A program made the translations under genes and the position numbers. A DNA stretch of 64,000 nt from Marsupella aquatica. Lineage: Eukaryota; Plantae; Marchantiophyta. The stretch is from NCBI GenBank assembly GCA_973895155.1, contig OZ316891.1, positions 20,596,169-20,660,168 of the forward strand, written 5' to 3'. The notes beneath the pieces are model-generated. The model ran no database searches. It saw only the letters and a list, made by a program, of their open reading frames with translations, and had not been told where the DNA came from. Position 1 is the stretch's first letter, and each line of letters begins with the position of its first letter. Of this stretch, positions 15,177 through 50,443 are shown piece after piece.

Positions 15177-15282
15177 AGGGGTGTGGAGGGTATGTGTGTG
15201 TATGTGTGAGTGCGGTAAACTGGTGGGAATCCTGGTTTCTCCTTAGCCCCAGGCTAGTTTGCTTTAGGGCTGACCCTGGTTC

Positions 15283-15320
15283 TGTTGAGCATAGACGACA
15301 TTCGTAACGGCAAGCCCATG
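15283..15320 (-). repeat. Inverted copy of the last 38 bp (U5) of the copia LTR, forming a terminal inverted repeat
   Basis: tgttgagcatagacgacattcgtaacggcaagcccatg is the reverse complement of 30807-30844 with 1 mismatch. Confidence 0.95.
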
Positions 15321-15329
15321 CTATCAGAG

Positions 15330-15341
15330 TGGTATCAGAGC
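15330..15341 (+). promoter_or_regulatory. Ectopic tRNA-iMet primer binding site (copy 1)
   Basis: (ag)TGGTATCAGAGC directly abutting the break in gag. Confidence 0.9.
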
Positions 15342-15775: not shown

Positions 15776-17526
15776 ATGAAACAATCACGAAAAAATGTTT
15801 TTTTTCAAAACTTCTCATAAAACTCAAAAATCAACACCGCCGCGTACCCCACGAAGCTAGGAGTCCAATACTGAAAGCCGAAATCAAAATCAAAATTTGA
15901 CGGAAAAGTTATTCAAATTTTGGTCGGGGTGGGTAAAACCTTGGGAAACTCCCCCGTTTTGACCACCTCGGAGAATAACCAAAATACCCAATACAACCCG
16001 TCGTCGGAATCGCAATGCGATTGGTGCGCCGCGTTGCCAACTTCAATGGCTACGTCCTTGTCGAAAAAGAACCAAAAAAGTTATCGTTCGGCGGACAGAA
16101 TCTTTGTTGGACGGCCGAAAAACAGCTCTTTGTTTTTTGGGAATATTCACGCATAGTCTGACAGGTCTCATAGGGGGCTGTTCCCCCTGTCGGAGCGGTT
16201 AAAACAGAGGGCGGCAGGTCCTGGCACCAAGTAAAACAAGAGGAAGCGAAGAGGAGGAAAAAGAGCCAAAAACAGGCCCTAAAGGGATGCAAAGCGCTTT
16301 AAATCCAAAAAATACGAGTATAAAAAGGCGGGCCAGGGGGTGTACAGGGCGTCGAGGTGGGGGCCGGGAGTAAAATACGTCTGCGTACGCAGCCAGAGAC
16401 GGGGTCCCGGGAGCGTACCGTCACCATGCGCTGTGGAGGGGCACCGACAGAAGGCAGGCGCGAGGTGGGAGAACCGGGGGCACAAGGCGAAGGCAGGGCC
16501 GGCCGACGGAGGGAGTCCCCCGGCTTATGCAGGCAGGTGGAGCGCGAGGCGGTCGGCTGGCAGCCGGGCGCAAAACGGTGTTAAGGGGGGGGGGCGAGGG
16601 CATGGCCTGGGTGACCGACGAGCGGGGAGGGTATGGTCGGGGCGCGCGCCGGTCGGCACTGCGGACCCCGCCGTTATAAATGGGGTGCGGGGAGGGGGGG
16701 AGGGATACAAACACAAGGGGGGTGCGGGGGTGTGTATACACACGAATATAACCCTTTAAACCCCCCTATAAAGGCAAAAAAACTCCCCCGGGATAAGTGA
16801 AAGAAAAACTCACCTAAAAAGCCGTTGTTTGATCCAAAGAAAGTGAACGCCGCCGATGGTAAATATTTCCGAATTTCACCGGCACAATCTGCAGCTCCAG
16901 CAGAGTAAACAATTTCCGTCGCGTTGCCTTCACTCCGCGTCAAGTGCCAATCCCGGGTGTCACACCATTCTAGGTAGTGTTAGAGTATATCGTACTATCT
17001 AGATCCATATGTTTGGTATATGTGCTATATGAGCCGATAAGGTTCTGTCAGGTTTGTGTGAGAGGGTACTTCTCACTTGTGAGGCATTGAAAGGTCATCT
17101 TTCAATGTTGAGCCTAGGAGAGAGATGAGCTTGAGTGTGGCTATGGTGGCTGGGCGCTTCGCTTGTGTAACGTGGATTCCTTGAGTAGTGCAAGCTAGGT
17201 GCATTGGCTTGACATACGTGTGTGATCGGATCGGTGCGGGATCAATGGGGTATTGTTGACCGGGATCGTTGTGCCGATTGTATTGAGATTACATTGAAAG
17301 ATCAGGAGCTTCAAACTCTGTTGTGTGGACAAAAGCTCAGTCTGAGTTTGTTGTTGACGATTTGCGGTAGATCAAATCGATTGGAGCTGTTGTTTTGATC
17401 TGTGGTACCTCGGATCGTGGAGTGGACCGCTGGTATTTTGATTTGCTCTAATCGGTGTTGAGAAGTTTGTGCCTGATCTGTGCTGCCATTCAACGGACAG
17501 TATGCTGCTGTTCGCGTTTTTGTGAA

Positions 17527-17692
17527 GTAGATCGGGCCTGCATCATCATCGTATGTAGATCTGTTGGGCCGATTTGCTGTTTTCGCAAGGGAAACAGCCA
17601 CAGATGTTGGTAGATCAGGCCTGCATCATCATCGTATGCAAATCTGTTGGGCCGATCTGCTATTTTTGCAAGGAAAATAGCTGCGGATGTTG
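17527..17692. repeat. Tandem duplication, 2 x 83 bp, in the gypsy leader
   Basis: gtagatc.ggcctgcatcatcatcgtatg...gatgttg at 17527 and 17610. Confidence 0.9.
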
Positions 17693-18188
17693 TTGAATCG
17701 CACAACGACACCGCCTGTGTAGCGATTTCCAGAACTTGCACGCCAACCTCTGCGTTTTGTTGAAGAAATAGAACTTTGAATGTTGCTATTTTGGTAGCGG
17801 ATGCGGGCTGCTGCTGATCAGAGCGCGGAGGCACTATCGCCTGCGTGTTTGTGAAGGGGAACGACTCGGGATTGTTGCCCATTTTGCGAGGGCTGGATTG
17901 CGGATTCGCTATGACAGGACAGTGCGTCGACGCGCTGCATTTCTGTGAAGGAAACTCGAGGCCGAAGTGTGGACGTTGTTGAATCTGGAAGTTGGATCCG
18001 GCGTAGCGGGCGTGAAGGGCTCACTTTGTGGCTCATCTCGGCATTTAGAGGCTTCGAGGCAACTCGGGACGAGGGGCGTGAGGGCGAAGCAGGAGCGGGC
18101 GGGCCAGCAAGCCAACTTGCTAGTACGTGAGGAGAATTGCAAGTGCTGTCATTTTGGAGTGGCAGATTTGGTGCATAATGACAAGTGA

Positions 18189-18256
18189 GAGGTCACCCAT
18201 CCCAAAGCTATTCCTCCCCTCATGCGCTTAACTAGCAAGTTCTTATGTGGTGCATT
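18189..18256 (-). promoter_or_regulatory. 5S rRNA-derived internal Pol III promoter core (box A to box C), not a full 5S gene
   Basis: + strand gaggtcacccatcc-N22-cgcttaact-N4-agttct-N5-ggtgcatt matches the reverse complement of plant 5S rRNA (GAGGTCACCCATCC-N22-CGCTTAACT-N4-AGTTCT-N10-GGTGCATT). The 5S ends are absent. Confidence 0.85.
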
Positions 18257-21200
18257 GTACATGCTTCCTTCCACACTTGGTGTCCAAGGAATGAGGCCCT
18301 AGGGGTTTTATGCACTTTTGAATTCATCTAGATACTCTATTTTAGCTAGTTTGCGATGGATTCTTGAATATTTGACGCAGGATTCTTGAGGCCTATTATG
18401 AAGGCCCTATATTGAACTATATGCACATTATTTTCATGTATTTCTGATTGATTGGTGTGGAGAGTTGTGGTAAATCCTCTTCTTGTTGTTGGATCCTCTC
18501 CACACATGCTTCCTGTTTATGCGCCATGTTGGTTTGGCGTGGACGCTTGATTCTATAGGAGTGATTCGGGTTTGCAACCGGACATTCTAGTTGTGCTACG
18601 TATTTCTCTCCTGGTGATGTTGGAGTGATGCCCAACACACCATGGTGAGTGCTTGTGTTGTTGACAAGGACAGATTGCCCTTAGGGTTAGCATATAGATT
18701 AGGTTAGATTGGTCACCACGGATTCTTCTGGTGCTGCTGGGTTACCCGATGGACGACGGACCGGTTTCACTTGGAGTGGGGCGCAGTTTTGGCCAACAAC
18801 ATTGGTAGCAGTCAGCAGCACAACTTCAAACAGTGATTCTGACGAGGACTCTGTGAGCAGTTCTCCTTGTCATCAGGTGATTGCACCTTTGTTGTGGGAT
18901 ATGGACAAGATGTACGGGGCTACAAAGGGCCCATGACGATACTCTGGTGCAGTTGGCACAATTGATCTGGATGACTTCATCCAGGAGTTTGATACGTGGT
19001 GCGATATGCAGACATTGCGTAACGCCATGTTGTTTACCCCTTTCATGGCATGGAAAGGATTATTCCAGCATTTGGAGGGGCCACCCATGGATGACTACCA
19101 TGAGTTTTGGAAGGCTCATTTGGTTGAGATTGAGGCATGGAGGCAGCATTGGTCGCCTAATTATGTGTCCATCACCTATTGCACTAGTGCGGCTGCCCAA
19201 CCCATTGCCACAGCTGTTGCTTCTTCTAGCAGCACTAGCCAGAGTGGCACACCATCCACCAGTAGCACTCCAGCAGCATCCATCGCTACTCCTACCGGTG
19301 TGATTGTGACAGGAATTGGAGTTGCGCCAACATTTAACCCTATGGTGGAATTCTTTGAGGTACTGAAGCAGACCTATCAGGGTGTGAGAACTGATAAGTT
19401 GAAGGGTCTCCAGGAGTTCCAGCGTAAGACTGGAGAGAGTCTACGTGAGGCATACACTCGTATGCGCAGATTGATCACTATCACCAAGGGAGTGACAGAG
19501 GCTCAGGCAATCCAGTTTTGGTATGCGATTCTGGACAAAGAATTGCGACGCAGAGTGAGAGATGTCACTCTACTTAGGGATGCAGATCCCACATTAGCAG
19601 TTGTTTTTACCCTTTCTCAGCGCATTCAGCTCAATATGGTGAATGAGAAGGTGGTGATTTCTGGATTTGCCAAGGAAGCACCAAAGGCTGCATCTACATC
19701 CACACCATAACCTACTGCACGGAAGAGCCAGAGGGAGAAGCCTGCTGGACGAGAGTCTACCAGCCAGAGACCTGTGCCCTCTTATGCTGGACAGCAGTCA
19801 AGATGTTGGACCTGTGGTGGGGATCATGCACAGAGATATTGTCCAGATCATAGAGGATCAGGGGGAGCATCAGCGCCTGATCAATGACAGTGTGATCATT
19901 GTGGAGCTCCTGGACACACCAAGGATAGGTGTTTCTCACTCCACCCTGAGTTACGGAGGGGAGGATCCCGTACACATGATCAGGGAAGAGGAGGAGGAGG
20001 TAGAGGTGGTGGACGTGGTCGTGGTCGTGGCATGCCACATGCAGGGAGACAGGAAGGTGACGCTGCCCCTACTATAACCATAAATCCAAATGATGCTAAG
20101 ATTGCTCAATTGGAGCAACAACTAGCTGCCATGGCTAGTTCCCAGGTGAGACCTACTTCTAGTGATGGGGCATCTACATCCTATGGACCTTCCACATCCC
20201 ATGGTCCTTCCACATCTTATGGAGCTGATGGAGACCTTGCCACCATGGGATTCATGTGTGGCACTGCACATATTGATGCATCAGCAGCGTTGACACGTGG
20301 GGCAGCCAAAGCTCTTGAGCCCCGAGGAGCAGTAGTGGAGTTAGATCCATAGAGGGAGGATGCACGTTGGCAGACAAAGCTTCCTCAGTCTTTTACATTG
20401 TCAGAGATAGTTCAGACTGTCTCTATGAACCCGGTTCGGACAAACCCTAATGTGGGTAAGTCGGCAGAATCAGGTAGTGATGCAGTAGGGATGACAGGTA
20501 CCCTGCTGGGGGCGGCTACTGCCATGGTACGCACCCCATTATTTTCAGCGACAGACATGCTGAACTTGGGAGTTGGTCTTGCAAAAGTGTTCAGATTGGC
20601 AGCTATACTCTGTGAGGACACTCCAGTGGTTGCTTCCCATGCAGAAGCAGCTTGCAGTGTTGAAGCAGTGAAATCCATGCCACCTACTACTACTAGTGAG
20701 ACATGGCATGTAGCAACAGCAAGGTTGGTGGATTTACCAGCACGCCCTGCATTTGAGAGGACTAGGTTTAAACCTAGTGTTGTGTCATTGGATAATCGAA
20801 GTGGTATCTTCCGATTAGTTGGGCCTTCTTGGGCAGTATACCAGCCAGAGAGAGTGTTACTGGATACTAGTGCTCAGCCCTTGATGTTGGGTAAGTCTGC
20901 CATACGTGGGTTGGGATTGCATCCAGAGGATTTGGAGGATTGTCCCTTTCCCATTCAGACTTCATTGGGGGGACCTACACCTACACAGCACATTACCAGG
21001 AGACCTCTTGATTTGAGGATTCAGGAAGGTCATACCACAGATAACTCACAAATACAGGCGCGAGCTATTCTGACTAAGGCAGAGTCATATGATGTGTTGG
21101 TGGGATGTACAGTGCTCTACCCCATGGGATTTATTCTTGATTTTTTGGAGGAATCAGTGTCATATAGACCTGATTGGCAGTCAGGAGATGCTTGATTGAG

Positions 21201-21567
21201 CAAATTGCCAATGAGATTTAGTGGACCTATGGGAGGCCCTAAATCCACACCATTGTCTTTGGCAGCATTCAGTGGGCTAATTGTTGGACCTGATGATTTG
21301 ATTGAGGGTAATGTGCATGCAGCAGATGTTCCACCATTGGAGGAGACTCATGAGGAGCACATCATGCAGGGATTCCCTGTTGGCAGTGTTGTGCCACCAG
21401 TGTGGGGCATTGCATAGACCTTGCCACAGGAAGCAGCACGATTGGTACATGATGCATGGCGTCATGCTTTTACACCATAGTCAGGAGCAGAGCAGTCTCT
21501 TGCAGATGGACCGGTGACTCTTTCACCATTGGATACCACTCCTATTGCTTGGCAGTATCCACCGGAG

Positions 21568-22490
21568 GGTATTTGTTTGTTGGATCGTTTTGGTGGGATT
21601 AGCACTAGATTGGCTGTTGTTCTTTAGGCAGGAATTCTTGTGCGTTGTTATTTGTATGTGGAGACAGATGAGACAACACGGAGGATCTCATTGCAACATG
21701 TGGCTATGTTGGTGGATAGATATCCACAGTTGCTGCTAGTGGATGCTGTTCGTGGTTATCAGCATGCACTACCTACTGATATTTCATTACTAGGGGCGGA
21801 TCATCTGCATCGTGTTGGCCCCATTGATTTGGTGATTGCTGGTTGGCCATGTTAGGGCCAATCTAGAGCTGGCATTGGGCATGGACTTCATGATCCACGC
21901 TCAACACTATTTTGGGAGATGTTACGGGTGCTGCGTCATCTCCAGCTACATCAGACACAATCTCCAACATACATTTTGGAGAATGTGCCATTGTTAGGTG
22001 ATGATCGCAGTCGGATTGTTGCCAGTGTTCACCAGGTGAGGTCTTGGATTGGACCTGCTGTGTTATTGGATGCTACACATGTGGGTTCTCGTGCACATCG
22101 TCCACGCTTGTGGTGGACCAATTTGATCCCATGTGAGGTGCTGAAGCGCGCATTTGACAGCATTCCACGCTCACCAGCCTTAGTGGTGGATGATATTTTG
22201 GATCCAGAGCATCGTGCACAGGGTGTGACCCAACCTGATAGACCTCCATTGGCAATGGTCAATCCACTCTTGTAAGCCATTCTGCTTCTTATGCATTCAG
22301 AGCAGGTGGCCCTGGACTTGTGTGGGACACAGCTCTCCAGCAGTTAGTGGAACCTACTGCTGATGAGAGAGAGCGTGCTATGGGATTTTTGACTAGCACC
22401 ACTGCAGTTGCCTCTGTGTTAGAGGGTTTGCGACGCTAGGTTCTTGGTCAAGCAATGGATCTGAATTGTTTAACTTGGATTATCAGCTTG
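21568..22490 (+). pseudogene. C5 cytosine DNA methyltransferase domain within pol (between AP and RT)
   Basis: Motif I LLDRFGGIST (~21580), motif IV GPIDLVIAGWPC*G (PC 21847-21852), motif VI ILENV (ENV 21979), motif VIII RAHRPRLWWTN (22090), motifs IX/X ERERAMGF...RR*VLGQAMD (~22365-22460), in canonical order. Confidence 0.92.
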
Positions 22491-25400
22491 GGAGTAGCTG
22501 AACAGTTGCGGATGCGCTCTGCTGAAATTACTGATTGTCCCTTGGTGAGCTTGCGGTCCACTGAGACAGTATTAACCACAGCTGGGGGCGAGCAGACAGT
22601 CCATGGACCTATGGCAGGATTGGCCAAGGCTGGACAGATTGTTGAGCAGGAAGGGACTGCTCAATCTACTACTAAATAGCAATCATCGACTATCTTTTCT
22701 ACCCTACAAAGATATATTAGGGATTTGGTGGAGAGTTGGGAACCACAGCTTGGCCCTAAGTTGACAGGGGAGGAGAGACGTCGCATGCATCGATTCCTGA
22801 AGAGTTACTGGAATTGTTTTGCATTTAGCATGAAGGATTTGGGGACATTAAAGGGTCCTGGTATTCAGATTGAATTGGCTAGTAATGCGCCAATCTTTCG
22901 TAGGCCATACCGTTACAGTGACATGGAGAGAGCTTTGATTCAAAGCAGAACTCAAGATTTGTTGGAGGCTGGATTGGTGGAGATTTCATATGGGGAGTAT
23001 GCATCTGCCACAGTGATGCCAGCCAAGAAGGATGTGCATGGCAATTACACAGATAGGCGCATGTGTGGTGATTACATACCCATTAATCGCCAGACAAATC
23101 TGATAGATATGCCATGCCCACACTTGAGGAGATATTTGATGCTGTGGGGCATGCAAAGGTTTTCAGTTCATTGGATCTGAGGGCAGGGTATCATCAGCTT
23201 CCAATTAGGCATGCTGACAGGTCCAAGACAACATTCTAGGGGATTAATTCTTATGGCAAAGATCGTTTGTATCAGTGGTTATTCTTACCATTTGGGTTGA
23301 AGAATGCACCAGCTGAGTTCCAGAGAGTCATGGATCGAATCCTTGCAGGTTTGGATTTTGTCAGATGTTATATTGATGATATTTTGGTCTATTCTTCTAC
23401 TATGGAAGAACATCAGCAGCACTTGCAAATTGTGTTGGAGAGATTGAGAGCACATGGGTTGAAGCTCCATCCTAGCAAGTGTAAGTTCTTCCAAGACCAG
23501 ATTGAGTATTTGGGCCACACCATATACCCAGGGGGATTGGGTGTACAGCAGACTAAAGTGGAGGCCATTACACAGATTCCTTGTCCTACTGATGTGAGTT
23601 TGTGCATTCTTGGGATTTGCGAGCTACTACAGGAGGTATGTTAAAGGATTTAGCCAGCTTGCTAAACCTTTGACCATACTCACTAAGTTGGATCATGAAT
23701 GGATTTGGGGTGATGACCAGGAGCATGCCTTTCAGGAGTTGAAGCAAAGGTTGGCATCATCCCCTGTTTTGATAAGACCCATTTCAGGCAGACCATTTTA
23801 GCTACACACTGATTGGAGTGGAGTAGGACTTGGAGCAGTGCTGACTCAAAAGGATGATGAGGGGAATGAGTTTGTTGTGGCTTATGCCAGTAGATCAAAC
23901 AATTCAGCAGAGGCTAAGTATAGCTCTTATGAGGGAGAGTGTTTGGCAGCAGTGTGGGCTGTTGCACATTTTTGTTGCTACTTGTTTGATAACCCTTTCA
24001 CCTTGATCACTGATCATCAGCCTCTTAAGTGGTTAATGGAGTCTGACAAGCTTACAGGGAAGCTTGCACGATGGGCATTGTTGTTACAGGAGTATGATTT
24101 CCAGGTGGTGCATAGGCCTGGAAAAGTGAACTTGGATGCAAATGGATTAAGCCGGAATCCATGTACCAGTCAGCAGGATGAGACTGGAGCCAGATGGCAT
24201 GATGAGTCAGATAAGGAGATGGTGCCAGGATGGCATGCATCTGCCTTTCTTTGTTGGGTGCCAACATATAGTGGATCTGTTGACTCTACCTCATTGGATG
24301 GAGTGGATGAGGAGTCTTTAGATGTGGATGTTGGTGAGGTAACTTTTGGATAGCAAGATATTCACAATGATGTGAGAGTGTTGGAATATCTGCGCAGTGG
24401 TTCTATTGTTGGCAGTGTTGATGCCAAAGAACGTGACAGGGTTCTACATAGAGCCAAGAGGTTTCGATGGGAGGGAAACCATCTTTTGAGAGTACTGCAT
24501 GATGGTAGGGTGTTGGTGGTACCAAAACCATCACAACGAGTACATTTGGTACGACATGCACACGAGGAGTTGGGGCACTTTGGTGTGAAGCGCACTTATA
24601 GCTTGTTGCAGACACAGTATTGGTGGCGTCGTATGCACACTCATGTCCAGCAGTTGATAGCTAAGTGTGTGGTATGTGATAGAGTGAGAGCATCATTTAA
24701 TGCTCCCACTCCCCAGTTGCACCCGTTGCCGATCATGGGTTTGGGATATCGTTGGAGTTTGGATTTTTCTGGTCCATTACCTCTTACCCAACGTCATAAT
24801 CGGTATGTTTTGGTCATGGTGGAGCACTTCTCCAAGTGGATTGAGCTAGTGGCATTGCCAGATAAAGCCAGTGGAGGAGTTGCTGCTACATTTTTGGATC
24901 GTGTACTCAGTCATTTTGGAGCACCAGCTGAGGTGTTGACTGATCAGGGAACTGAGTTCCGTGGAGAGTTTGAGAGTTTGTATGAGTCACAAGCTCTGAT
25001 TGATCATCGTACTACCTCTTGTGATCATCCTAAGGCAAATGGATTAGCCGAGAGAGTTGTGCAAACTGTAAAGAGAGGATTGCGTAAGTATGGCTTGCAG
25101 GTTGGTCATCTGGGAGATTGGGATCTCCAGCTACCTTGGTTAGCTATGGGCTACCGTTTTAGTCGGCAAGCATAACTTGCATCATTTTCACCTTACTTTT
25201 TGCTCTATGGTAGAGAGCCAGATTTGCTAGCAGCTATTCGTCATGATGCTGCACCAGTTGTGAACTTGGATGATCCTGATGTTTGGGTCAAGGTGTGTTC
25301 AGAGAGAGCACGGGTATTTCAGAGAGTGATGCCCATGGCTTTTGACAACGTTGCCATTGCCCAACATCGTGATACTTTGAGGTATGCCACTATTCGTGGA

Positions 25401-25661
25401 GGAGGTTATCGTGCAAGCATTCGATGATTTCATCCTAGTGATTATGTTTATTTGCAGCAGACAACACCCACAACACTTGATGTGACCACAGGCCGGACAA
25501 TCTTACGTGTGCGTGAAGTGTTGCCTTCTGGTGTCCTGATGTTGGAGGGACGCGATGGTATGGTTTGGAAGGATCAAGTGCGCAACTGTGCACCATGTCA
25601 CCTTCCCAACATTGATGGTATAGTAGATCCAAGCTTGGCACATGTTCGTGCTGGCTTGAAA

Positions 25662-25799
25662 TGTATGTTGTGTGGATCTGCTCAGGGAGCAGCTACTATG
25701 TTGATTTGTGATAAGTATTCTAGAGAATGGCACATGTCATGTTTGACACCACCATTGCAGGTGATTCCTAGTGGATCATGGTTGTGTCCTCAGTGTCGG
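25662..25799 (+). other. PHD finger at the integrase C-terminus
   Basis: CMLC-x11-CDK(Y)-x4-HMSC-LTPPLQVIPSGSWLCPQC, a C4HC3 pattern with one Cys apparently mutated (TGT>TAT). Confidence 0.9.
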
Positions 25800-26635
25800 T
25801 GAAGCCGACTAGTTATCATTTGTGTTCTCTTGGCAGATATGGATTGCAGGTAGATGATCGATGAGGCTCACTTGCACCCGGCCTCCTGATCTTCACACCT
25901 AAAAAGGTGTATATCAACCTTGTAGAACTCATGGCTAGCTAGAGTTAGGGGACCTTACTCCCAGCTAGAGGGGCGATTGTGGGTTTTGGACATGTGTGGA
26001 CATGAGTTCCACTTGTATTCCATTCTCTTGTGTTTGTGATATGGCAGTGTGACTATGTTTGGATGTATGTGACAAGCGATGTATGTTGTGTAGCGATGTG
26101 TATGCGCACGACATGGGCTCAAAACAACCGTCTCGCCACGATCAAACCGTTGAGCCGTAGCACTTCGCGTTTCTTCCACCGAGTAGGACGTCACGAAGAG
26201 AAACCCAGTTCAGATGAGAACAAGCTCTATAGCTTGTGAAAAAACCTGAACGCCTCCTTCACTCGTCACGACGCACTCGATAACAACTCGACAACAATTC
26301 AGCTACCGAAATGACCAGCTCGCTTCAAACTTCAACTTAAGCTATAATATGCAATCCCTCCCGCACCGCACGGCTCACACCGTTGAAAAAAACAATCTCT
26401 CGTCTCTCCCCCCAAAAGCCGTCGAACACGAATAAAACCTGAACGACGCAAACTTCAATTCCTCCGCACCACGGATACCAATCAGCGAGTTCTAACCACC
26501 GTTAGAAAGCCCTCTCACTAACTTATTCGCTCAGCCACACATATTTGAGTTTCATGCGACAAAACTCGAAATATACCATCGACAACGAACGCTAGAAAAA
26601 CCTGTCACAAAAAAACCTCGTCACCTCCCAGGCAT

Positions 26636-26647
26636 GCTCTGATACCA
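26636..26647 (-). promoter_or_regulatory. tRNA-iMet PBS (copy 2, the native PBS followed by the copia leader)
   Basis: Minus strand tCAAG-TGGTATCAGAGC-atgcc, followed by leader sequence running toward gag-N. Confidence 0.9.
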
Positions 26648-27305
26648 CTTGATACTACGTTGAGAGCATAACCTTGACATCACAATATGTCATCATCATC
26701 GAGTAAATCTACCTCATGCGAGCTCGATGCCGCGTTAGCAGAGGCAGTAGGGACCTTTACTCGACAATCCCTTTTCATGTGGCCAGGCTTGCCACAATTC
26801 CAACATGCAAGAGGCTTCCTCTCTTGCAATTTCCCTCTGGATTTAGATCTCCCCTATTATGTAGATCTAAACCTGTTCTGCCCATTTGTGCGCTGCGCTG
26901 CTCTTCCCCTATTCACATTGAGCGTAGTGCCAGAAGAAGATGCTGTCTGTGATTGACCCAGCTTTTTCTGAGCATCATCAGACAGTAATGAGCTCATCAC
27001 CTCATTATACGAAATGGACTTCAGATCTCTATACAAGAACACCTATTTCAAGCCCTAATATGATGGCAGTAAGGAGCTTAGCAAAAGCAAGGCCTTATCC
27101 TCATCTTCAACTCATTTTCCCAGGTTTGACAGATCCACCGGTAGACTGTCAAATTCATCCAGGTGATCCTGCATCTTGCTCCCTTCCTTGAGCCTGAGAC
27201 TCATCAAGAGAGACTTCTTGTATAGCCGGTCTAACGCATCTTCCCGGTAGCACTTCTCTCTTAGAGCCTTGAATAGTGACGCGCAATCTACATAATCATC
27301 TAGCT
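26648..27305 (-). pseudogene. Copia gag, C-terminal piece
   Basis: QLDDYVDCASLFKALREK...LRLKEGSKMQDHLDEF...EDEDKALLLLSSL...GRSKSRGK...CWNCGKPGHMKRDC...YALNVVSS. Confidence 0.9.
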
Positions 27306-27317
27306 GCTCTGATACCA
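27306..27317 (-). promoter_or_regulatory. Ectopic tRNA-iMet PBS (copy 3)
   Basis: Minus strand tCAAG-TGGTATCAGAGC-agctagat, between + strand protease and - strand gag-C. Confidence 0.9.
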
Positions 27318-27320
27318 CTT

Positions 27321-30293
27321 GACTGGATTCTAGATAGTGCATGTACTTTTCACATTTGCTCTAGGAGAGATTGTTTCAGTTCTTACACGGTTTCCAACGG
27401 GTCAGTGTTGATGGGAAATGGAATCCCATGTCAAGTTGTTGGACTTGGATCTGTAAGATTTCAGATGTTTGATGGTGCTATGAGAACGTTGAGGAATGTG
27501 AGACATATTCCCAGCATGATGAAAAATCTTATTTCATTTGGAGTTTTAGAAGCAAATGGCCATCAGTGGAGTTCTGCTAACGGTGTCCTTCAGGTTTCAA
27601 TTGGTACTAAAGTTGTATTGAAGGAAAAAAGACATTACAATCTATACGTTTTGGAGGGCAGTGTAGTCTGTGATGAAGTCAATATAACCTTATCTCATGA
27701 AGAGACGGCCCGGCTGTGGAGCCCCTACTCCCTCACATTCTGGACGGTTATACTATGTTACGTTCATAGACAATTACTCAAGATATGTGTGGATATACTT
27801 TCTACACAATAAGTCTGATGTTTTTGCCACTTTTAAGAAGTGGAAAGCCAAGTAGAGAATCAGACTGGTAATAAGGTGAGATATCTTCGATCGGATAACG
27901 GCGGTGAATACATTTCCAGGGAATTTGGAACGTATTGTAAAGAGTAGGGGATTACCCGCCATCTCACAACAAGTTATACTCCTCAGCAGAATGGTGTTTC
28001 TGAGAGACTCAACTAAACACTATTGGACCGCTCGAGGAGTATGTTGAGTCAATCATGCTTACCACATGAGTTTTGGGCTGAAGCTATCAACACTATAGCT
28101 TATTTAGTAAATTTTTCTCCATCCAGTTCTATTGGATTCAAGACGCCATTTGAAATGAGGTACGGGCATCCAGCAGATTACTCACATCTGAGGATTTTTG
28201 GATGTGATGCTTATGTGCTTACACCTTTCCAGCTTCGATCCAAGCTGGAGTCCAAATCGAAGAAGTACATTTTCCTTGGCTATCAGAAAGGTGTGAAGGG
28301 TTATAGGTTATGGGATCCAGTAACCTGTAAACTAATTGTCAATAGAGATGTGTCCTTCAAAGAATCCAGATCATCAAAGGAGGGGGAAATTTCTCAGGAC
28401 TCCCATACTGACAAGGGGAAATCTCCCATCTCGAACCGGGTTGAGGGGGAGATTAGTCATGATGCTGTTCATGACAGGAGAGATGGAGAAGCTCCGGGCT
28501 TGGAGCTGGTTCCTATGATGGAACAAGAGGAGCAGATTGTTGCTGGGGTACCTCAAATTCAACCAGCAGCAGCAGATCAGCCTAAGTCATCTACTAGAAA
28601 AACTTCCAGTTGTTCTACTAGAGCTCCTACCAGGTATGGTCAATGGGCAGACTCATCTAAGCTAGATGATATTGACATTGCATCTGATGATGATGACATG
28701 ACTTTGATCTTGGAAGAAGGAGAGTCTTCTTCGTATAGTGAGGCTTGTGCTTCAGAACATAAGGATGAGTGGAATGCAGCAATGCAGAGGGAATTGCAAT
28801 CTTTGAGTAACAACAAGACATGAGAGCTGGTGGAGCTTCCAAGAGGTCAGCAAGTGGTGGACAGCAAATGAATTTACAAGTTGAAGGACAGTCCTTCAGA
28901 GGGTGGAGATAAGATCTACAAGACAAGGCTTGTTGCCAAGGGATTCACTCAGGAGAAAGGAGTGGATTACAATGAGGTCTTTTCACCGGTGGCTAAGTAT
29001 TCCACAATTCAGATCTTGTGTCAACTTGTTGTGTTTTTTGGTCTGGTGATGGATCAGATGGATGTTGTTACTGCTTTTCTCTATGGCAACTTGGAAGAGT
29101 TGATCTTCATGAGACAGCCACTAGGCTTTATGAAGAAGGGCCAAGAGAACTTAGTTTGCAGATTGCTTAAGTCCTTGTATGGATTGAAGCAGTCTCCCAG
29201 ATAGTGGAACAAGCGGTTTGATGATTTCATGCTTGCTCAAGGTTTTACAAGGATGGTGTATGATCCTTGTGTGTATACGAAATCAGTCAAGAATGATGTG
29301 TTTGGTTTCATCATTCTGGTTATTTATGTGGATGACATGCTGATTGTGGCTAAAGATCAATGTGAGGTTGACAGTCTCAAGGCGAACTTGAGTGTTGAAT
29401 TCAGGATGAAGGATCTTGGTAAGGCCAAGAGGATCTTAGGGATGGAGATTTTTAGGAACTCTGAGACTGGACAGTTGTGCTTGAGTCAAGGCCAGTATGC
29501 GAGGAAAGTACTTGCACGATTCAACATGGAGAACTGTAAGCCAGTGAGTATTCCTTTAGCATCACATTTCAAGTTATCATCGGCTTTCTCTCCTACGGAT
29601 GCTGTGGAGAAAGGTCTGATGGCTAAGATTCCTTATGAGAAGGCAGTAGACAGTCTGATGTATTTGATGACTTGTACTAGGCCTGACTTGGCCCTAGCGA
29701 TGGGCAAGGTTAGCAGATTCATGTCAAATCCAGGGAAGGTACATTGGGAAGTTGTGAAATGGATTCTCAGGTATCTCAAGGGTACACAGGACTATGGATT
29801 ACTATTTGATAACATATCAGATAGAACGTTAGTTGGCTATGTAGATTCTGACTATGAGGGCTATCTGGATAGAAGGAGGTCTACAACTGGGTTTGTATAC
29901 ACTCTTGGAGGAGGATGTATCAGTTAGAAATCTACCTTGCAGAAGTGCATATCTCAGTCTACTACAGAAGCAGAGTATGTTGCAGCAGCAGAAGCAGCAA
30001 AGGAAGCAATTTGGTTGGACAAGTTGATCGTGGAGATGGGTTTAGAGCATGGCAAAATGACTCTAAAGTGTGATAGTCAGAGTGCTCTTCACTTGGCTGC
30101 TAACCAGGTGATGGATAGTAGGGTGAAGCACATTGATATCAGGTACCATTTTATCAGGCAAACAGTGTCTGATAAAACTTTTGAGCTAGTCAAGATTGAT
30201 GGAAAGCTCAATCCCGTTGATGCCTTTACCAAAGTGATTCCTTTGGAGAGTTTCTCAAGACACCGTGCTACTTTGCAGGTTTTGCAGTTGTAG
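27321..30293 (+). pseudogene. Copia pol (PR-INT-RT-RNase H), disrupted
   Basis: [77 protein letters not shown] (~29325), STTEAEY, KHIDIRYHF. The integrase HHCC region appears deleted near 27720. Confidence 0.95.
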
Positions 30294-30994: not shown

Positions 30995-31678
30995 TTGGAT
31001 GGGTCTATTTTAGGCTTTCAAGGAAGAAAAAAAAGAGAGGAAAAACGGGGGAAAAAAGTTGCATATGGGTTTACTTTCGACTTTCAAAGGAAAAATAAAA
31101 TGTGAACTGGACAAAGAGAGAGTGTGAAGTACAAACGAATCTTTCAAAGAGATCCCCAGAAAATCATTAGTGCCAAAGCCACCAGAAATTGGAATCTGTG
31201 AAATCTCGAGTCCGCATATCCAACAATCTGGGCAGTACGTTGTGTGCTTTCTCGTGCTGATCAGTCCAATCGGCTACTCCATATTACTCAAGAGTCCACC
31301 AGATTTCCAGCAGCTCATCAATCGATCGATCGATTGATCAGGAGTATGTCATTCGACTATCGACGAGCTCATTACTATGAATCAGCTTTTCGCCGGCTGT
31401 CAAGCAATCAGCAGTTTCTCTGCTCTCAATCACTCAAGGACCTCTCAAAATGAAGCATCCCGTGTGTTCAGAAGAGGCAGGTCTACGTACATTAGCTATA
31501 TGCCCAGATATTAATTCTTGGGGGGGGGAGGAACGTGACCGAGAAGGAAACGTGTTCACTGTGTCGGTCGATTAGTTGGGTTTCCATTCAATACCATTCT
31601 CTTTGGCTGGGAGAACCGAAGAAATTCTTGAAGTAGGCTAAAGAAGGGATCTGTCGAAGTGGTGGGGCAAAGAAGGGC

Positions 31679-33808
31679 ATGCTGAGCGGCAGCAGAATTG
31701 GGTTACTGGCGACTGTGGTGTCATGGCGGCAGAAGATCATCATTAGCAGATCCCTCTGTCTGCGTTCTTCGCCTTCGCATTCACAACCACCGTCCCTCTC
31801 CACTTCTCAACCTTTTAATCCTGTTCGCCCCATTTTTAGGGTTGGTTTCAGCTTCAATTCCAGCCATTGCTTCTCGCCGGATCAGTGTTCGTCTTCATCA
31901 TTCAATTCTTCGTCCCTGCAGCAGAGGACGTGGAGAAGCAGGAGAAAATACTCAGTGAACAGCTTGTTAGTCATTTCAGTTCCGAATTTCAGCACCAGGT
32001 CGAAGACGGGTGGTACTTCATACCATGCTGCGCCATCAGCACTGTTCTCGCCTCTATGGTCTTCCTCGGTCATTCTCAGAAGAATTGGAATGGGACATCG
32101 GCAGCGGCAGCGTAGGAACAGGACGACTAGGGCGAGAACCCAGGAACAGAATACCATATCTGTCGAGGCAATCGCCAGCATTGACGATCCAGAGACAGAC
32201 TTGAACCAGAAGAATTCATTGCACGAGGAATTGGAGCGTTATGGAGTTCATGAATCTGATTACAAGCCACAAGAGATGAACGAGCACCAACCATCAAGAG
32301 GAAGCAGCAGCATGCGTAGGAAACGGAAAGCCACTACAGATTTGTCCAACGGCAGCAAACAGCAGCACACTCCTGCGAAGGGAAAATCTGACGTGGTGCA
32401 AGACTGGTGTTGCTATCTTCTCCTCTCTGTGGATTCAAAAAAGACCTATGTGGGTGCCACGTTTGATATCAAACGAAGGTGAGAAAGAAGGCAGTTCAAC
32501 TAAGACATATGGTGCAACGTGATAAGTTGTAGATTTAGTTGCTGGTCCTTGTAATAGTGAAAAGCAAGGAAATCTTTTAGTTTGAATCGGGACAGCATTG
32601 ACGTTATCGTTGTGGTAGAACTCTAGCTTTGAAGCTGATGTTGATGTCGAGTCATAATAGCAGCAAATGTCATTTGAAGCTGGGGAAAGAATTGCTGGAA
32701 CTTGTGAACGAAGAAGCTAGGGAGGAACCTGACTGTCAAAAAGTTTGATGTCAATCACAACAGTAGCAGTTAGGAAGTCAGAAGTGAGTTGAAGGGGATG
32801 TAGAGGACGTTCTAAACTATAAGACTCCGATTTTGAATTTCTTACCAGATGAAGTTCATTGTTTGCAGGCTAAGGCAGCACAACGGAGAGATTTCAGGTG
32901 GTGCTAAATCTGCACGGGCGGGGAGACCTTGGAGACTAGTTTGTACCGTACATGGATTTAACTCACGCAGTGAAGGTCCATTCCCCGTTAAGACTCTCTC
33001 TTCGAATTCTTTCCAGAACTTTTGCCTGAGTGACGCTTTTCAGAAAATGTGCTGGCATGTAATTCATACAGTGGACTCTTTCAACACAAATCAATGCTAC
33101 ATGTAATTCTACCTTCGTCGTGCTCATATATACGGAAGGCACTGCACTGCACCATGTCCAACCGACGTTCTTTAACTGGTCTTCGATCCCTTCCCTTCTG
33201 CCTGGTGTGCTCTTTTTTCATTGGATTTGACTTCGCGTCAACTATCACAGGCACTCTTTAGTAAGGTCTCAAAATCTGATGTTATGATTGAAAATTGTCC
33301 ATTTGAGGATTGCCAGTTAAATTAATCTTGTGGGTCTGTCTCCGGCTGTTTTGCCTAGATCCACACTTCCTATTATCCACAATCTAAGGACTTAGTCGCA
33401 CTCGTGTAACTTGTCTGAGTGTCGAGTCTAAGCAGTTTAGGGGCATTTTCCAATGGACGCGTCTTCACTTTGACTCGACAAAGCACGAAGTTGGGAATTG
33501 TAGGTTTCAGAGTATCTGGGCTCATTTTGTTGGCTAGTCAGGCAACTTCAGATGTTGTTTTTATTCTCGTCGCAGCAAGTGCCATCAGTTTGACGATTAC
33601 GGTCCTAACGATCAGCACTGATGCCTCTACAGCTTGTCAGTTTGAATGGAGATGGAAAGCAACTGCAGCAAAATACAAAATTATCGTACGACGGGACTCG
33701 GAAACTATGGAATCACCTCTGGTCACACGCAGAAGGGCAACTCTGGCCAAGGTTCTTAAAGCGCAAGAAGAGTGGACCTATCTCAACGTTCAGTGGCATG
33801 CTGATTAG
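31679..33808 (+). CDS. SLX1-like GIY-YIG endonuclease, 3 exons (31679-32478, 32869-32975, 33633-33808)
   Basis: WCCYLLLS..KKTYVGAT.DIKRRLRQHNGEISGGAK...GRPW...HGF..RSEACQFEWRWK across GT-AG introns. Long S/R-rich N-terminus, so the start codon is uncertain. Confidence 0.88.
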
Positions 33809-34590
33809 ACTTGTAATGTCTTTCTTAAAGATAATTGGGAAGAGTATGAGGGAGAGAGCTTGAGATATCATGGTTCGACAAACGTTGCCTTTCCAAAGGG
33901 AGAAAATGAATCCCATCTGTCGAATGTGTTAGCCTAAGCACTGGGTCATTTTTAGCGAAAATGAAAGAAAAGGTTGGATTTTCATTTCTGCCAGGTTACT
34001 TCACCCTTCATGTACAACAGTTACTCCGTAGCCAAAATGATGGCTGTGTAAAGTCAGTAGGATTTGTATACTAGATTCATACACATGAGAAATGTTATGT
34101 ATTGGAAATTACCATGCAATCATTCAAACTTATCCGTGGACTGAACTGTATCAAGAGATTACTGGTCAGGGATCCTGATGTCAATGGACCTCTTTCTTTT
34201 CGTCTCTTTATCCATATTTGATTCCTCTAATCATTTGCTTGTTATAGAATGAGGGTGTGACTACTTTCAGCGTTGTGTAAGGTGGCAGTTGGCGATCTCC
34301 GTGCAGTTCAAGATTCTCTCTACTTGAACTCTGTCTGTCTGAAGAACTGGCGCTTGAATAGAAAGCAGGTTGGATGTAGTGTACATGATTCAGGACTTTA
34401 AGCAAACTCTCTTGACTAGGACAGTGATTAGAGTGTTTGGAATTTACCTGAGACTTAGAGTTCTATACATCCGGGAAGATTCCTAAAAGTTTGCCAAGGA
34501 AATCTGGGCACCTGTGCACCTGGACAGATCATAATTATGAGCCCACATTCACCAATAACATAGCTCGTCAACTTCCCACTCGGTCCAACT

Positions 34591-34920
34591 GCCTGGTCAT
34601 CTTACTTATGTATGACAGCACGTTTGGTCAACAACAATTTAAGATCAACAATTTGTGCCTGGTCATCTTACTTATGTATGACAGCACGTTTGCTCAACAA
34701 CAATTTAAGATCAACAATTTGTGCCTGGTCATCTTACTTATGTATGACAGCACGTTTGCTCAACAACAATTTAAGATCAACAATTTGTGCCTGGTCATCT
34801 TACTTATGTATGACAGCACTTTTGCTCAACAACAATCTAAGATCAACAATTTGTGCCTGATCATCTTACTTATGTATCACAGCACTTTTGCTCAACAACA
34901 ATTTAAGATCAACAATTTTG
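34591..34920. repeat. Minisatellite, 5 x 66 bp
   Basis: Unit gcctggtcatcttacttatgtatgacagcacgtttgctcaacaacaatttaagatcaacaatttgt, near-identical copies. Confidence 0.97.
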
Positions 34921-35781
34921 TGCAAGGCACAAGCATTGTGTATGTTTAAATCACAATTGTCCCTATAAAGAGCTACAAGTTACCTATAGCTTTCAGTATA
35001 AGTACACAGGTTCAGGAATGGGCTTGAGATTCACAAACTCTGGTGATGGTGAGTGCTTCACGTTTTATTTTCAAGTGCAAGTGCTCCACCTTTTATGTGA
35101 GAGTACCCCACAAAATTATCAGACTACCCCACAAAATGTTACACAGGTTCAGGAATGGGGTTGAGCTTCACAAAATGTGGTGACTGCCTCACCTTTCATT
35201 TGCAAGTGCTCTACCTTTTATGCGAGACTACCCCACCAAATGGGGTTACTGTTTCACCTTTTATTTGCAAGTGCTTCACCTTCAATGTGAGACTACCCCG
35301 TTCACCACACAGGAATGAGTAGTGAAGTAGTAAATGGGGAGTTTATATAGGCAGGTGTGTGTTAAAGATTTAACAGATCACGTTAATGTGTACATTTTTG
35401 TGCACAGCACTAGCATAGGGTATGCGACGATTTTGTGCCTTGGCATTGGATCTGCTTAACACTTACTATCTACATATTCATAGCTCAACATCACTCAATG
35501 CCAATAACATTCTGCAGGTCTATGATAATATTGTGCAAGGCATTGGGCTTGTTGACCATAAATATTAAGCTTTGATTTGCCATATTCATCTTGTGCTTGA
35601 ATAATTGAGACAGCGTCTTCGAGCTTTGTCGAGGCAATCAATGTAAGTGCTACAATGCTCTAAAGTGGGGACCGGTCTGGCGGATTGTTGCCGCCTTCCA
35701 AAATTGGATTTTCTTGAGGGTGAGCATTTTCCATCTTCGGTACACGTTATGAACTGTTAATTTCCATCTTGAGAGCACGTT

Positions 35782-36495
35782 ATGACACTCTCCACTCAAT
35801 CTCCTTGTGCATTCTTGGAGATTGCTTGCTTCAATGTCCAATCGGTGCTGGTGGCTGACATAGGCGGCGCGGATCGTATCGAATTTTGCGCCAACAGAGC
35901 ATCCGGGGGTGTGACCCCGACTCTGTCGGTCCTGCGGGAAATCAAACTTAAATGCAAGAAACCCCTACATGTCATGATCCGTCCAAGAGGAGGAGATTTT
36001 ATCTATACAGATGCGGAATTTGATCAGATGAAGGATGACATACGCAACATTATGATTCTTGGAGGCATTGCCAGTGGTTTCGTGTTTGGAATTTTGGCCG
36101 CCAACAGCAGCCAGGTCGACCAGAGAAGAAATGCAGAATTGGTAGCTCTCGCACGTCCGCTGCCATGCACGTTTCATCGAGCATTCGATGAGCTGCAAGA
36201 TCTCGGAAAAGCCCTAGAAGACGTCGTTTCTTGCGGGTTCAAAACGATTCTCACTTCTGGTGGAGTATCCGATGCTGTTGCTGGGGCTGCAGTCCTGGGT
36301 AGCTTGGTGTGGAAGGCCAGGGGAAGGATCGCAATTATGCCTGGTGGAGGTGTAAGATCATCGAATCTCCAGCTCCTCATGGGCCAGACAGGAGCCGATT
36401 GGTACCACTCCTCAGCAATTTCAGATTGTGGTGAGGACGCTGATGAGAAGGAAATAAAACGACTCACAGCAGCTTTGAGGGGATTTGCATCTTGA
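35782..36495 (+). CDS. cutC: CutC family copper homeostasis protein (TIM barrel), intronless
   Basis: LEIAC, GADRIEFC, GGVTP, VMIRPRGGDFIY, GFVFGIL, CTFHRAFD, ILTSGG, IMPGGGV, HSSA. Intact 237-aa ORF. Confidence 0.95.
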   Translation: MTLSTQSPCAFLEIACFNVQSVLVADIGGADRIEFCANRASGGVTPTLSVLREIKLKCKKPLHVMIRPRGGDFIYTDAEFDQMKDDIRNIMILGGIASGFVFGILAANSSQVDQRRNAELVALARPLPCTFHRAFDELQDLGKALEDVVSCGFKTILTSGGVSDAVAGAAVLGSLVWKARGRIAIMPGGGVRSSNLQLLMGQTGADWYHSSAISDCGEDADEKEIKRLTAALRGFAS

Positions 36496-49034: not shown

Positions 49035-50091
49035 CTACTGCGCGGATGGCTCCCAGCCTGAGGGTGCAGCAGGGGCGGTTTCCCAACCTGATGGGGCCAC
49101 AGGGGGTGGCACAAAGGCTGGTGGAGCAACAGAAGAAGCGTCCCAACCAGCAGGAGGTGCAGGAGCCACCCACTCAGCTGGCGCACCGGGTGGAGGAATG
49201 ACGGGGGCAGGAGCAGGCGCACCGTCGGCCTCCCACTGTCCAGGATCAGCACCGTCCCATTGTCCAGCATCAGCCGTCAAAGCAGGTGGAGGCACATACT
49301 CTGTTGCGGTGAACTCTGGTGCACCCGTTTCCTCCTCCTCCCTGTCCTTGGTTTCATCAGGCTCACGGTAAAAGAAGAGATCGACCATCACTTCCCATGG
49401 CCTGGTCGGGGTGATTGTTCCGCGCATCTGCAGCACCATCCTTGCCAACAGCCAGAACAACGCTCCTATGCTGTGCTTGCCCTTGTTATTCGCGGGGATA
49501 GCAATGTCGACATGACGCATGGGAGAGTCGGTGTCACAGAAGGCGATGGTGGGAATGTTTCCGAGCGCCGCCTCTCTAATAGGCTGCACGACCAAAATTC
49601 ACCGAATGAGCCCCTCCCTACAATCCAACAAGAAACCCAGACACAAGAGCAGCGAGAAAGAATAACTCTAGACCTAAACCCAAAGACATCGACGAAACCC
49701 ATACACGCACCTGATGATCCGTTCGGGGGTCAGTCAAAATCAACAAGCGGGGTTCGCTGAAAGTGTTCTGCAGCTGATTAGTGAACGTCCCGGGAGTGTG
49801 TCGCCCAGCGATGGCCTGTGCGCCAGTGTACTGCGCGAACTTCAACACCGCCCTCTGCCCGTAAGGCCTCGCGGACTGAACGATGATATCCTGCGGGTTC
49901 TCAATCGCCACAATCACCCTCGCAGCGAGCTGCAGCTTCTCCCACGTCTTGCCGAGGTTGATGATAAAAATCCCGTCCGTTCGGCGGCGCCAAACGTACC
50001 GCTCCATTTGGAAATCGCAATTCTTCGTGCCAAGATGCACGTCTGCCGCAAGCATCATCTGCACATCCTGCTCTCGCTGCGTGAGCACCAT
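49035..50091 (-). CDS. RPSA: 40S ribosomal protein SA (uS2), 2 exons (50091-49711, 49583-49035)
   Basis: [22 protein letters not shown]...[12 protein letters not shown]...[11 protein letters not shown]|[21 protein letters not shown]...VDLFFYREP plus W-repeat tail. One 127-bp GT-AG intron. Confidence 0.97.
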
Positions 50092-50290
50092 CTTGCAAGT
50101 TCGATAGCTGGCTCCCGGTGTCTGCTTCTTGCGTAGGTTGGTTGCAGGCGAATCGATCGATTGATCGACCGTCTGACGAGAGAAAAACGGACGAAGCTCG
50201 AGACGAGAAGAGGAAAAGAAGGCAGCAGATCGCCAATCTGCACAAAAGGCACGAGACGTCGAGAGTGCGAAAGTATGTACAGAGAAGAAG

Positions 50291-50349
50291 AACCCTAAAA
50301 TTCCCACACCCCTAAACTGAAGACTGACGGACGGAACCGGAGCCCTAAA
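50291..50349. promoter_or_regulatory. Telo-box-like motifs upstream of RPSA
   Basis: aaccctaa (50291), accctaaa (50309), gccctaaa (50342). Telo-boxes (AAACCCTA) are typical of plant ribosomal protein promoters. Confidence 0.6.
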
Positions 50350-50443
50350 ATCGGAGACCTGGGTTAGACACGGAACACCTCGGGTTAACCACCACTGTCA
50401 ACCCCTCGTGTAATTTCATAAAGTGATCAAGTATAGTAAAGTC

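Follow-up and report, generated by a model that had tools for sequence, protein, structure and literature searches.

A PHD finger at the C-terminus of a retrotransposon integrase, encoded downstream of a cytosine methyltransferase in the same element, raises the question of whether a histone reader and a DNA methylation writer act together within one mobile element. Such a locus is found in the liverwort Marsupella aquatica, in a 64,000-nucleotide stretch of contig OZ316891.1 that we refer to as the window. An earlier sequence-only reading had proposed that a C4HC3 PHD finger ends the polyprotein, that such fingers commonly read H3K4 methylation state, much as the PHD-like ADD domain coupled to the catalytic domain of animal DNMT3 binds unmethylated H3K4, and that this pairing of reader and writer could steer integration and methylation to silent chromatin.

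Anatomy of a decayed Ty3/gypsy element

The PHD finger is a real domain. A Pfam search of the frame at 25428-25802 (+) matched PF00628, as had been expected, with a score of 37.1 bits where 24 is the cut-off and an E of 3.1e-9, and PHD proteins made up 60/60 of the best among 77 PDB sequences matching at E ≤ 0.001. The finger shares one frame (23604-25799) with RNase H and the integrase, in which four stops precede the terminal stop, and it is preceded by the integrase C-terminal module. In chromovirus integrases a chromodomain occupies this position. The proposed domain and its placement thus hold, while the intact C4HC3 finger does not, as this copy retains seven of the eight zinc ligands. 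We extracted 127 PHDs from 144 proteins, giving 126 aligned relatives of the window copy; the fourth ligand is Cys in all 126 and Tyr in the window, and the position two before the His ligand is Gly in 121 and Glu in the window. All eight ligands are present in 124/126 relatives. Other copies, found in contigs from four public runs matched to the window, mostly have the family residues at both altered positions. Codon comparison indicates that the PHD of intact relatives is under purifying selection (dN/dS 0.086 between relatives L003 and L004, a single pair over 46 codons, with 0.009 for the integrase core); dN/dS between the window and L003 is saturated.

The finger closes a decayed Ty3/gypsy element of 9.2 kb (16958-26113) with the domain order gag-protease-DNMT-(TAG CAATCA)-RT-RNase H-integrase-PHD (Table 1), in which protease-RT-RNase H-integrase is the Ty3/gypsy order. 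This copy is dead: it has 17 in-frame stops, the terminal one included, and several frameshifts, and its CpG observed/expected ratio (o/e) is 0.32 versus 0.78 in the relatives L001 and L003. The methyltransferase that had been read from the sequence is also present. Our own DNMT3-like profile matched the window at E 4e-64 and 6e-25 across two frames, the closest solved structure is DNMT3A (E 7e-9), and DNMT3A/B/C account for 29 of 30 PDB matches. Its catalytic Cys is found in 240/256 near-complete family domains, with the ENV and RxR motifs similarly conserved.

Table 1. Positions in the window of the gypsy element, its insertion site and the host copia element
Feature	Position	Strand	Evidence or remark
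Left target-site duplication	16954..16957	+	4 bp, one mismatch versus right copy
Terminal repeat A	16958..17291	+	left end, begins TG; joints 26113 to 16958/60 and 17290 to 25976
gag-like region, zinc knuckles	18881..19962	+	tblastn of P0014, P0164; frames
Aspartic protease region	20830..21171	+	start approximate; tblastn of full-length relatives; frames
DNMT3-like C5 cytosine methyltransferase	21565..22500	+	PC, ENV, RxR motifs; stops and frameshift near 22265
In-frame TAG then CAATCA (CAR YYA context)	22677..22685	+	between DNMT and RT; candidate readthrough site
RT and RNase H	22740..24098	+	frameshifts ~23096 and ~23600, plus stops
Integrase	24528..25637	+	H2C2 zinc finger, core, C-terminal module; two stops
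PHD finger, C-terminus of integrase	25662..25802	+	first Cys 25662, stop 25800-25802; 7/8 zinc ligands
Polypurine tract	25963..25976	+	sequence; same place in L003 and L004
Terminal repeat B	25977..26113	+	right end, ends CA; contig joints
Right target-site duplication	26114..26117	+	
Host copia 5' leader and tRNA-iMet primer site	26114..26647	-	leader resumes left of 16957
Host copia gag, C-terminal part	26660..27301	-	inverted versus its pol; PF14223 E 2.5e-13; joint 27301 to 15339
Host copia pol	27318..30293	+	profile matches

The context of the TAG between the methyltransferase and RT occurs at just one of the 17 in-frame stops of the window element (background 21 in 9,156 positions). UAG followed by CAR YYA is the readthrough signal of tobacco mosaic virus, with an efficiency of ~10% (PMC2754532). 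In L003, the gag-protease-DNMT frame closes at a single in-frame TAG-CAATCA at the ORF1/ORF2 border (L003 3489-3497), and the RT-to-PHD frame resumes in phase; the RTs of the window and L003 are only ~67% alike, yet the motif is common to both. The border in L001 has two TAG codons followed by CCAAGG and does not match the exact motif, which is therefore found in two of the three DNA loci that cover the DNMT-RT border. Six ORF1 clusters terminate where ORF1 of L003 does, and relatives including P0014, P0164, P0186 and P0513 run continuously from DNMT into RT with no stop between. These sequences make TAG-CAATCA a likely site of programmed readthrough, one that follows protease and DNMT instead of gag. 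Our literature search found no paper tying CARYYA readthrough to retrotransposons.

A repeat finder, blastn and local alignment found no ordinary LTR pair in the window because the terminal repeats are split. Some run contigs join 26113 to 16958/60 and others join 17290 to 25976; the two ends of the element are therefore different repeats, A and B. At the 3' end of L004, contained on one contig, the polypurine tract is followed by B, a two-base spacer, A, a second B and flank, and the two B copies are identical over 106 bp (L004 2311-2884). The final A-B pair is missing from the window copy, which has only A...B with its target duplication kept; this arrangement may reflect either B-B recombination or integration at the inner junction. 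The CA-nn-TG junction within the A...B-A-B repeats resembles a circle junction. Separately, we noted low read depth at 17335-17900, which includes an 83-bp duplication, and at 16201-16767, within otherwise highly repeated elements; these stretches may be copy-specific leader sequence or small insertions.

Insertion inside another retrotransposon, also part of the earlier reading, was confirmed by an empty site. Run contigs join 16954/5 to 26116/7, with matching loose ends in three runs, and the flank leads into a tRNA-iMet site and copia gag. By this joint the element begins with the TG at 16958, ends with the CA at 26113 and is flanked by a 4-bp duplication, and its insertion site is a copia 5' leader. 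The host copia is itself scrambled by inversions, and tRNA-iMet primer-site sequence occurs at three junctions (15282-15341, 26636-26651 and 27301-27317), one of which is the expected primer site. CpG o/e in the target leader is 1.2-1.5 versus 0.3 in the coding parts. Several host genes also lie in the window, among them CutC, ribosomal uS2 and FAM91 (35773-36495, 49035-50397 and 56757-59088), and weak matches below Pfam cut-offs to GIY-YIG and MrpR-like (tyrosine-recombinase fold) domains occur at 31637-32482 and 34452-34949. The uS2 gene is closest to chains of plant ribosomes, as expected of a green plant, and an atlas search with the FAM91 frame gave hits below 0.9 only.

This single nested insertion says nothing on targeting, since insertions into repeats also survive selection better and nesting cannot separate the two, a caveat likewise raised for CopiaMBD (PMC6673714) and Gypsy-7a_cRei (PMC9940879). 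The nesting had been taken to fit targeting to silent chromatin, and that support falls away. It could also be read as post-insertion selection acting on a PHD that binds H3 without site preference. Such generic tethering would be consistent with the one nested site, with a target that is a CpG-rich leader in a window with several host genes, and with the mere ~3-fold discrimination of K4me3 by UHRF1-type PHDs (PMC3214078). The intergenic bias of Gypsy-7a (PMC9940879) and the chromovirus precedent (PMC6673714) fit some targeting instead, and we regard generic tethering as quite unlikely.

PHD and DNMT3 domains across the green-lineage clade

A protein search with the integrase-PHD region gave 284 relatives, of which we examined the best 120. 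PF00628 was found in 119 of these, a count biased toward PHD by the query, and our custom DNMT3-like profile found DNMT in 76, far above the Pfam calls. Named relatives include Coleochaete, Closterium, Pleodorina, Volvox and Haematococcus, the nearest named protein among the matches listed being from a Coleochaete scutata transcriptome (81% over 323 columns). DNMT occupies one of two positions. In the window, L001, L003, P0014 and P0164 it precedes RT; in others, the named Pleodorina and Haematococcus proteins among them, it sits between RNase H and integrase. A metagenome scan with P0002 gave two loci, one of them usable (L001), and none of 50 candidates on viral contigs belonged to the family. 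Six loci came from a scan of genome contigs; two are elements (L003 and L004) and four are distant bacterial integrases. L003 and L004 are eukaryotic retrotransposon contigs inside a cyanobacterial MAG record, where the protein is labelled bacterial.

Two further searches did not select for the PHD. A DNMT-only search, blind to PHD, was followed through its best 150 of 1,269 proteins, 8 of which were already in the integrase-PHD set. Forty-nine of the 150 run to the end of the integrase C-terminal module and 101 are uninformative; among the 49, PHD is present in 44, absent despite a long tail in 2, and 3 are too short. An RT-only search (120 of 2,296 listed, crowded by multi-RT gene models) supplied 21 in-clade rows chosen by identity and 12 outgroups, which do not amount to a census. 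DNMT is present in 19 of these 21, the other 2 starting too late, and PHD in 11; another 2 are cut. In the remaining 8 the sequence extends to the module but no PHD is matched, although one of them has a degenerate Cys-rich tail and another stops 18 residues on.

We built an IQ-TREE phylogeny of RNase H plus integrase from 77 of 80 selected rows, the 3 omitted ones being outgroups. The 68 in-clade rows group together (100/99), separate from the chromodomain-bearing outgroups, and the DNMT position shifts once on the tree. Two well-supported subgroups have just one of the domains: a PHD-less, DNMT-bearing group that includes Closterium (100/96), and a DNMT-less, PHD-bearing group (100/98) nested among the post-RNase H elements and made up of one partial protein and two long ones that have protease but not DNMT. 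The PHD-less group is nested in a FastTree of RT-RNase H and sister to the rest (90/93) in the IQ-TREE phylogeny; as the two trees conflict, PHD loss is indistinguishable from a gain after DNMT. Reader and writer are thus combined in one element and co-inherited across a large clade, as the 44 of 49 informative proteins show, with the two subgroups as a qualification. Together, these comparisons indicate that the pairing of PHD and DNMT3 is old and usual in a green-lineage clade of chlorophytes and streptophytes, and that neither domain requires the other.

Whether co-inheritance reflects joint action is a separate matter. By analogy with ADD, the PHD would recruit or activate the DNMT3 at H3K4-unmethylated chromatin, so that methylation of a new copy and its flanks would coincide with integration. 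Consistent with this, the domains have been kept together across chlorophytes and streptophytes, DNMT was relocated once to just before the integrase, and one pre-integration complex could carry both. Contact in cis is possible in the post-RNase H arrangement, where 95-410 residues separate DNMT from the integrase that follows it (median 133; 88 proteins). DNMT distances also track those of RT (rho 0.55, permutation maximum 0.23) and integrase (rho 0.50, permutation maximum 0.20) in 81 proteins, but linkage within one element would by itself give such congruence. Against coupling, either domain is dispensable without the other, as the PHD-less and DNMT-less subgroups indicate, and no ADD domain is found in the best 60 of the 77 PDB matches. 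Further, the PHD is part of the integrase and, in 30 proteins with the pre-RT arrangement, follows DNMT at a distance of 1,021-1,282 residues, and in the window element ~1,050 residues and the in-frame TAG-CAATCA, a likely leaky stop found also in L003, separate the two, which makes coupling there unlikely. The DNMT3-ADD analogy therefore does not carry over well, and we hold coupling of this kind to be unlikely.

Other domains accompany some of these proteins. A Tudor-like domain follows the integrase in 84/136 post-RNase H proteins (e.g. P0096, P0340 and P0384), with a weak match to PF21743; P0340 keeps this domain and its PHD is missing. Some post-RNase H relatives have a G-patch between DNMT and integrase. 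Outside the window, a cluster of 39 members contains P0267, a 2,793-residue protein of non-LTR type with RT, PHD, a PCIF1-like domain (PF12237) and RNase H, and the representative of that cluster, P0224, has a degenerate DNMT3-like domain. By its domain matches, this cluster is a second retroelement class uniting PHD with methyltransferase-like domains.

Predicted ligand of the PHD finger

The nearest solved PHDs, among the best PDB matches, are those of CHD4, KDM5B (PHD1), PHF21A/BHC80, ATXR5, KDM5A and UHRF1. The PHDs of ATXR5 and CHD4 are readers of unmodified H3. The other four have been placed in the same reader class, and the roles of ligand residues have been described (PMC4225485, PMC3214078); we transferred these roles to the family by our own mapping onto the alignment. 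In the A1 pocket, the equivalent of KDM5B L325 is hydrophobic in 126/126 relatives and those of P347 and W351 are present in 124/126; the equivalent of D328, the R2-binding Asp after the third Cys, is present in 115/126. The window copy has the L, P and W of the pocket as well as the R2 Asp, and so do 11/11 of its nearest relatives. The PHDs that read H3K4me3 (ING, BPTF and TAF3) have a cage Trp (PMC4225485), and a cage aromatic at the ING2-W238/BPTF-W32 position, two before the His, was found in 0/126 relatives. With no cage Trp and with the H3 A1 and R2 pockets kept, the PHD of live relatives likely binds an unmodified H3 tail with a free N-terminus, with weak K4 selectivity.

Selectivity for K4me0 is doubtful in the subclade of the window because this subclade has largely lost the acids touching unmethylated K4 and T3. 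The acid before the first Cys, which contacts unmethylated K4, is missing from the window copy and present in 2/11 of its subclade versus 67/115 elsewhere, and an acid at the E321 position is present in 0/11 versus 61/115. Mean net charge of the PHD is +2.6 among these 11 nearest relatives versus -3.5 elsewhere, and H3 binding may be weak in this basic subclade. The claim that the finger reads H3K4 state is thus upheld insofar as it resembles readers of unmodified H3 rather than of H3K4me3, and weakened by the loss of the K4me0 acids.

The shift in charge could also mean that the PHD of this subclade is no longer a histone reader and serves instead to bind nucleic acid or some other protein, or to stabilise the integrase. 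Many PHDs are not H3 binders, and the net positive charge and vanished acidic patch of the 11 nearest relatives would suit such a role. However, the A1 pocket and R2 aspartate are kept in every one of them, and the ATXR5 PHD, an unmodified-H3 binder, is likewise without acids in the K4-contacting loop when aligned to the family. We consider a non-histone role improbable.

Proposed function and relation to known elements

We favour, as reasonably probable, a division of labour in live copies in which the integrase PHD tethers to nucleosomes via unmodified H3 and the DNMT acts earlier, and separately, on the element's cDNA. Some ribosomes would pass the TAG, leaving DNMT at Gag level and integrase-PHD lower, and the protease would free the mature proteins. 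The methyltransferase would mark the element's own cDNA in the particle, before integration. The integrase PHD would then grip A1 and R2 of H3 and tether the integration complex to nucleosomes; disfavouring H3K4me3 mildly at most, it would steer insertions away from active promoters without directing them to heterochromatin. If readthrough is real, an excess of DNMT fits cDNA methylation in the particle better than a one-to-one reader-writer module. De novo CG activity of dinoflagellate DIRS enzymes and the idea of cDNA methylation have been reported (PMC5890265), and a PHD-bearing Chlamydomonas gypsy has intergenic insertions at 2.6 times chance, with selection also possible (PMC9940879). A more ambitious proposal is that the clade rebuilt a DNMT3-ADD-like machine from an unmodified-H3 reader on the integrase and its own de novo DNMT. 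The named-chlorophyte branch would carry a DNMT3-integrase-PHD-Tudor chain that methylates insertions and flanks on landing, and in the window branch the leaky stop would set the writer:reader ratio; this we regard as a long shot.

In animal DNMT3A/B, the ADD adjoins and regulates the catalytic domain within one chain. The window element is similar in having a DNMT3-type catalytic domain and a reader likely for unmodified H3, but its reader is a canonical PHD on another enzyme, more than 1,000 residues off, rather than an adjacent ADD. Like chromoviruses, it has a reader on the integrase C-terminus, which probably works in a similar way; unlike them, it has a PHD in place of the chromodomain and belongs to the separate clade of the RNase H-integrase tree. 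As precedent for PHDs in gypsy elements of green algae, the earlier reading had named Chlamydomonas REM1, which reportedly has its PHD in a separate antisense ORF, together with a chromodomain. That precedent is secured by Gypsy-7a_cRei, in which a PHD in Gag-Pol is proposed to limit harmful insertions (PMC9940879; PMC8557442 on other PHD-bearing Chlamydomonas TEs) and for which, in contrast to the window element, the accessible text lists no methyltransferase (PMC9940879). PHDs have been called widespread in TEs (PMC8557442; 10.1101/2021.11.30.470311).

The element is kin to KnitGypsy-Dnmt3, by domain content and by a repeat layout that, for the latter element, comes from a figure legend. Both the window element and the streptophyte Gypsy-DNMT3 elements (PMC5890265, a report repeated in PMC12344493) have Ty3/gypsy domains, an intronless DNMT3-type enzyme in Pol and streptophyte hosts, and the DIRS-like repeats that the legend of Fig. 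4 attributes to KnitGypsy-Dnmt3 (PMC5890265) fit the split terminal repeats seen in the B-A-B end of L004 and the contig joints of the window family. PHD goes unmentioned in the main text and three supplementary texts of that paper, though its Fig. 4c may show one, and its accessible account mentions no readthrough. It treats Gypsy-DNMT3 as an event in the K. nitens lineage, whereas the relatives found here are wider and have two DNMT positions; no protein named as K. nitens was among the matches listed in our relative searches. EpiLTRs (bioRxiv 10.64898/2026.05.21.726589) are also LTR elements that encode a cytosine methyltransferase together with a histone reader, though with a chromodomain, DAM and a DNMT4-sister enzyme rather than a PHD and a DNMT3-type enzyme, and a Pfam search of the window element detected neither DAM nor a chromodomain (no PF00385). 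Our literature search, which covered mostly open-access papers, found no paper on a gypsy element pairing PHD with DNMT3.

Separate publications have thus described a Klebsormidium gypsy with DNMT3, Chlamydomonas elements with PHDs, and EpiLTRs with a chromodomain and DNMT. What is new is that PHD plus DNMT3 appears to be the usual state of a wide clade in which DNMT is mostly under-called by Pfam (76/120 by custom profile among the best of 284), that the DNMT moved once, and that there are natural subgroups without the PHD or without the DNMT. These subgroups allow a comparative test of the roles of methyltransferase and reader in retrotransposons, and, if readthrough after DNMT is real, particles should contain far more methyltransferase than integrase.
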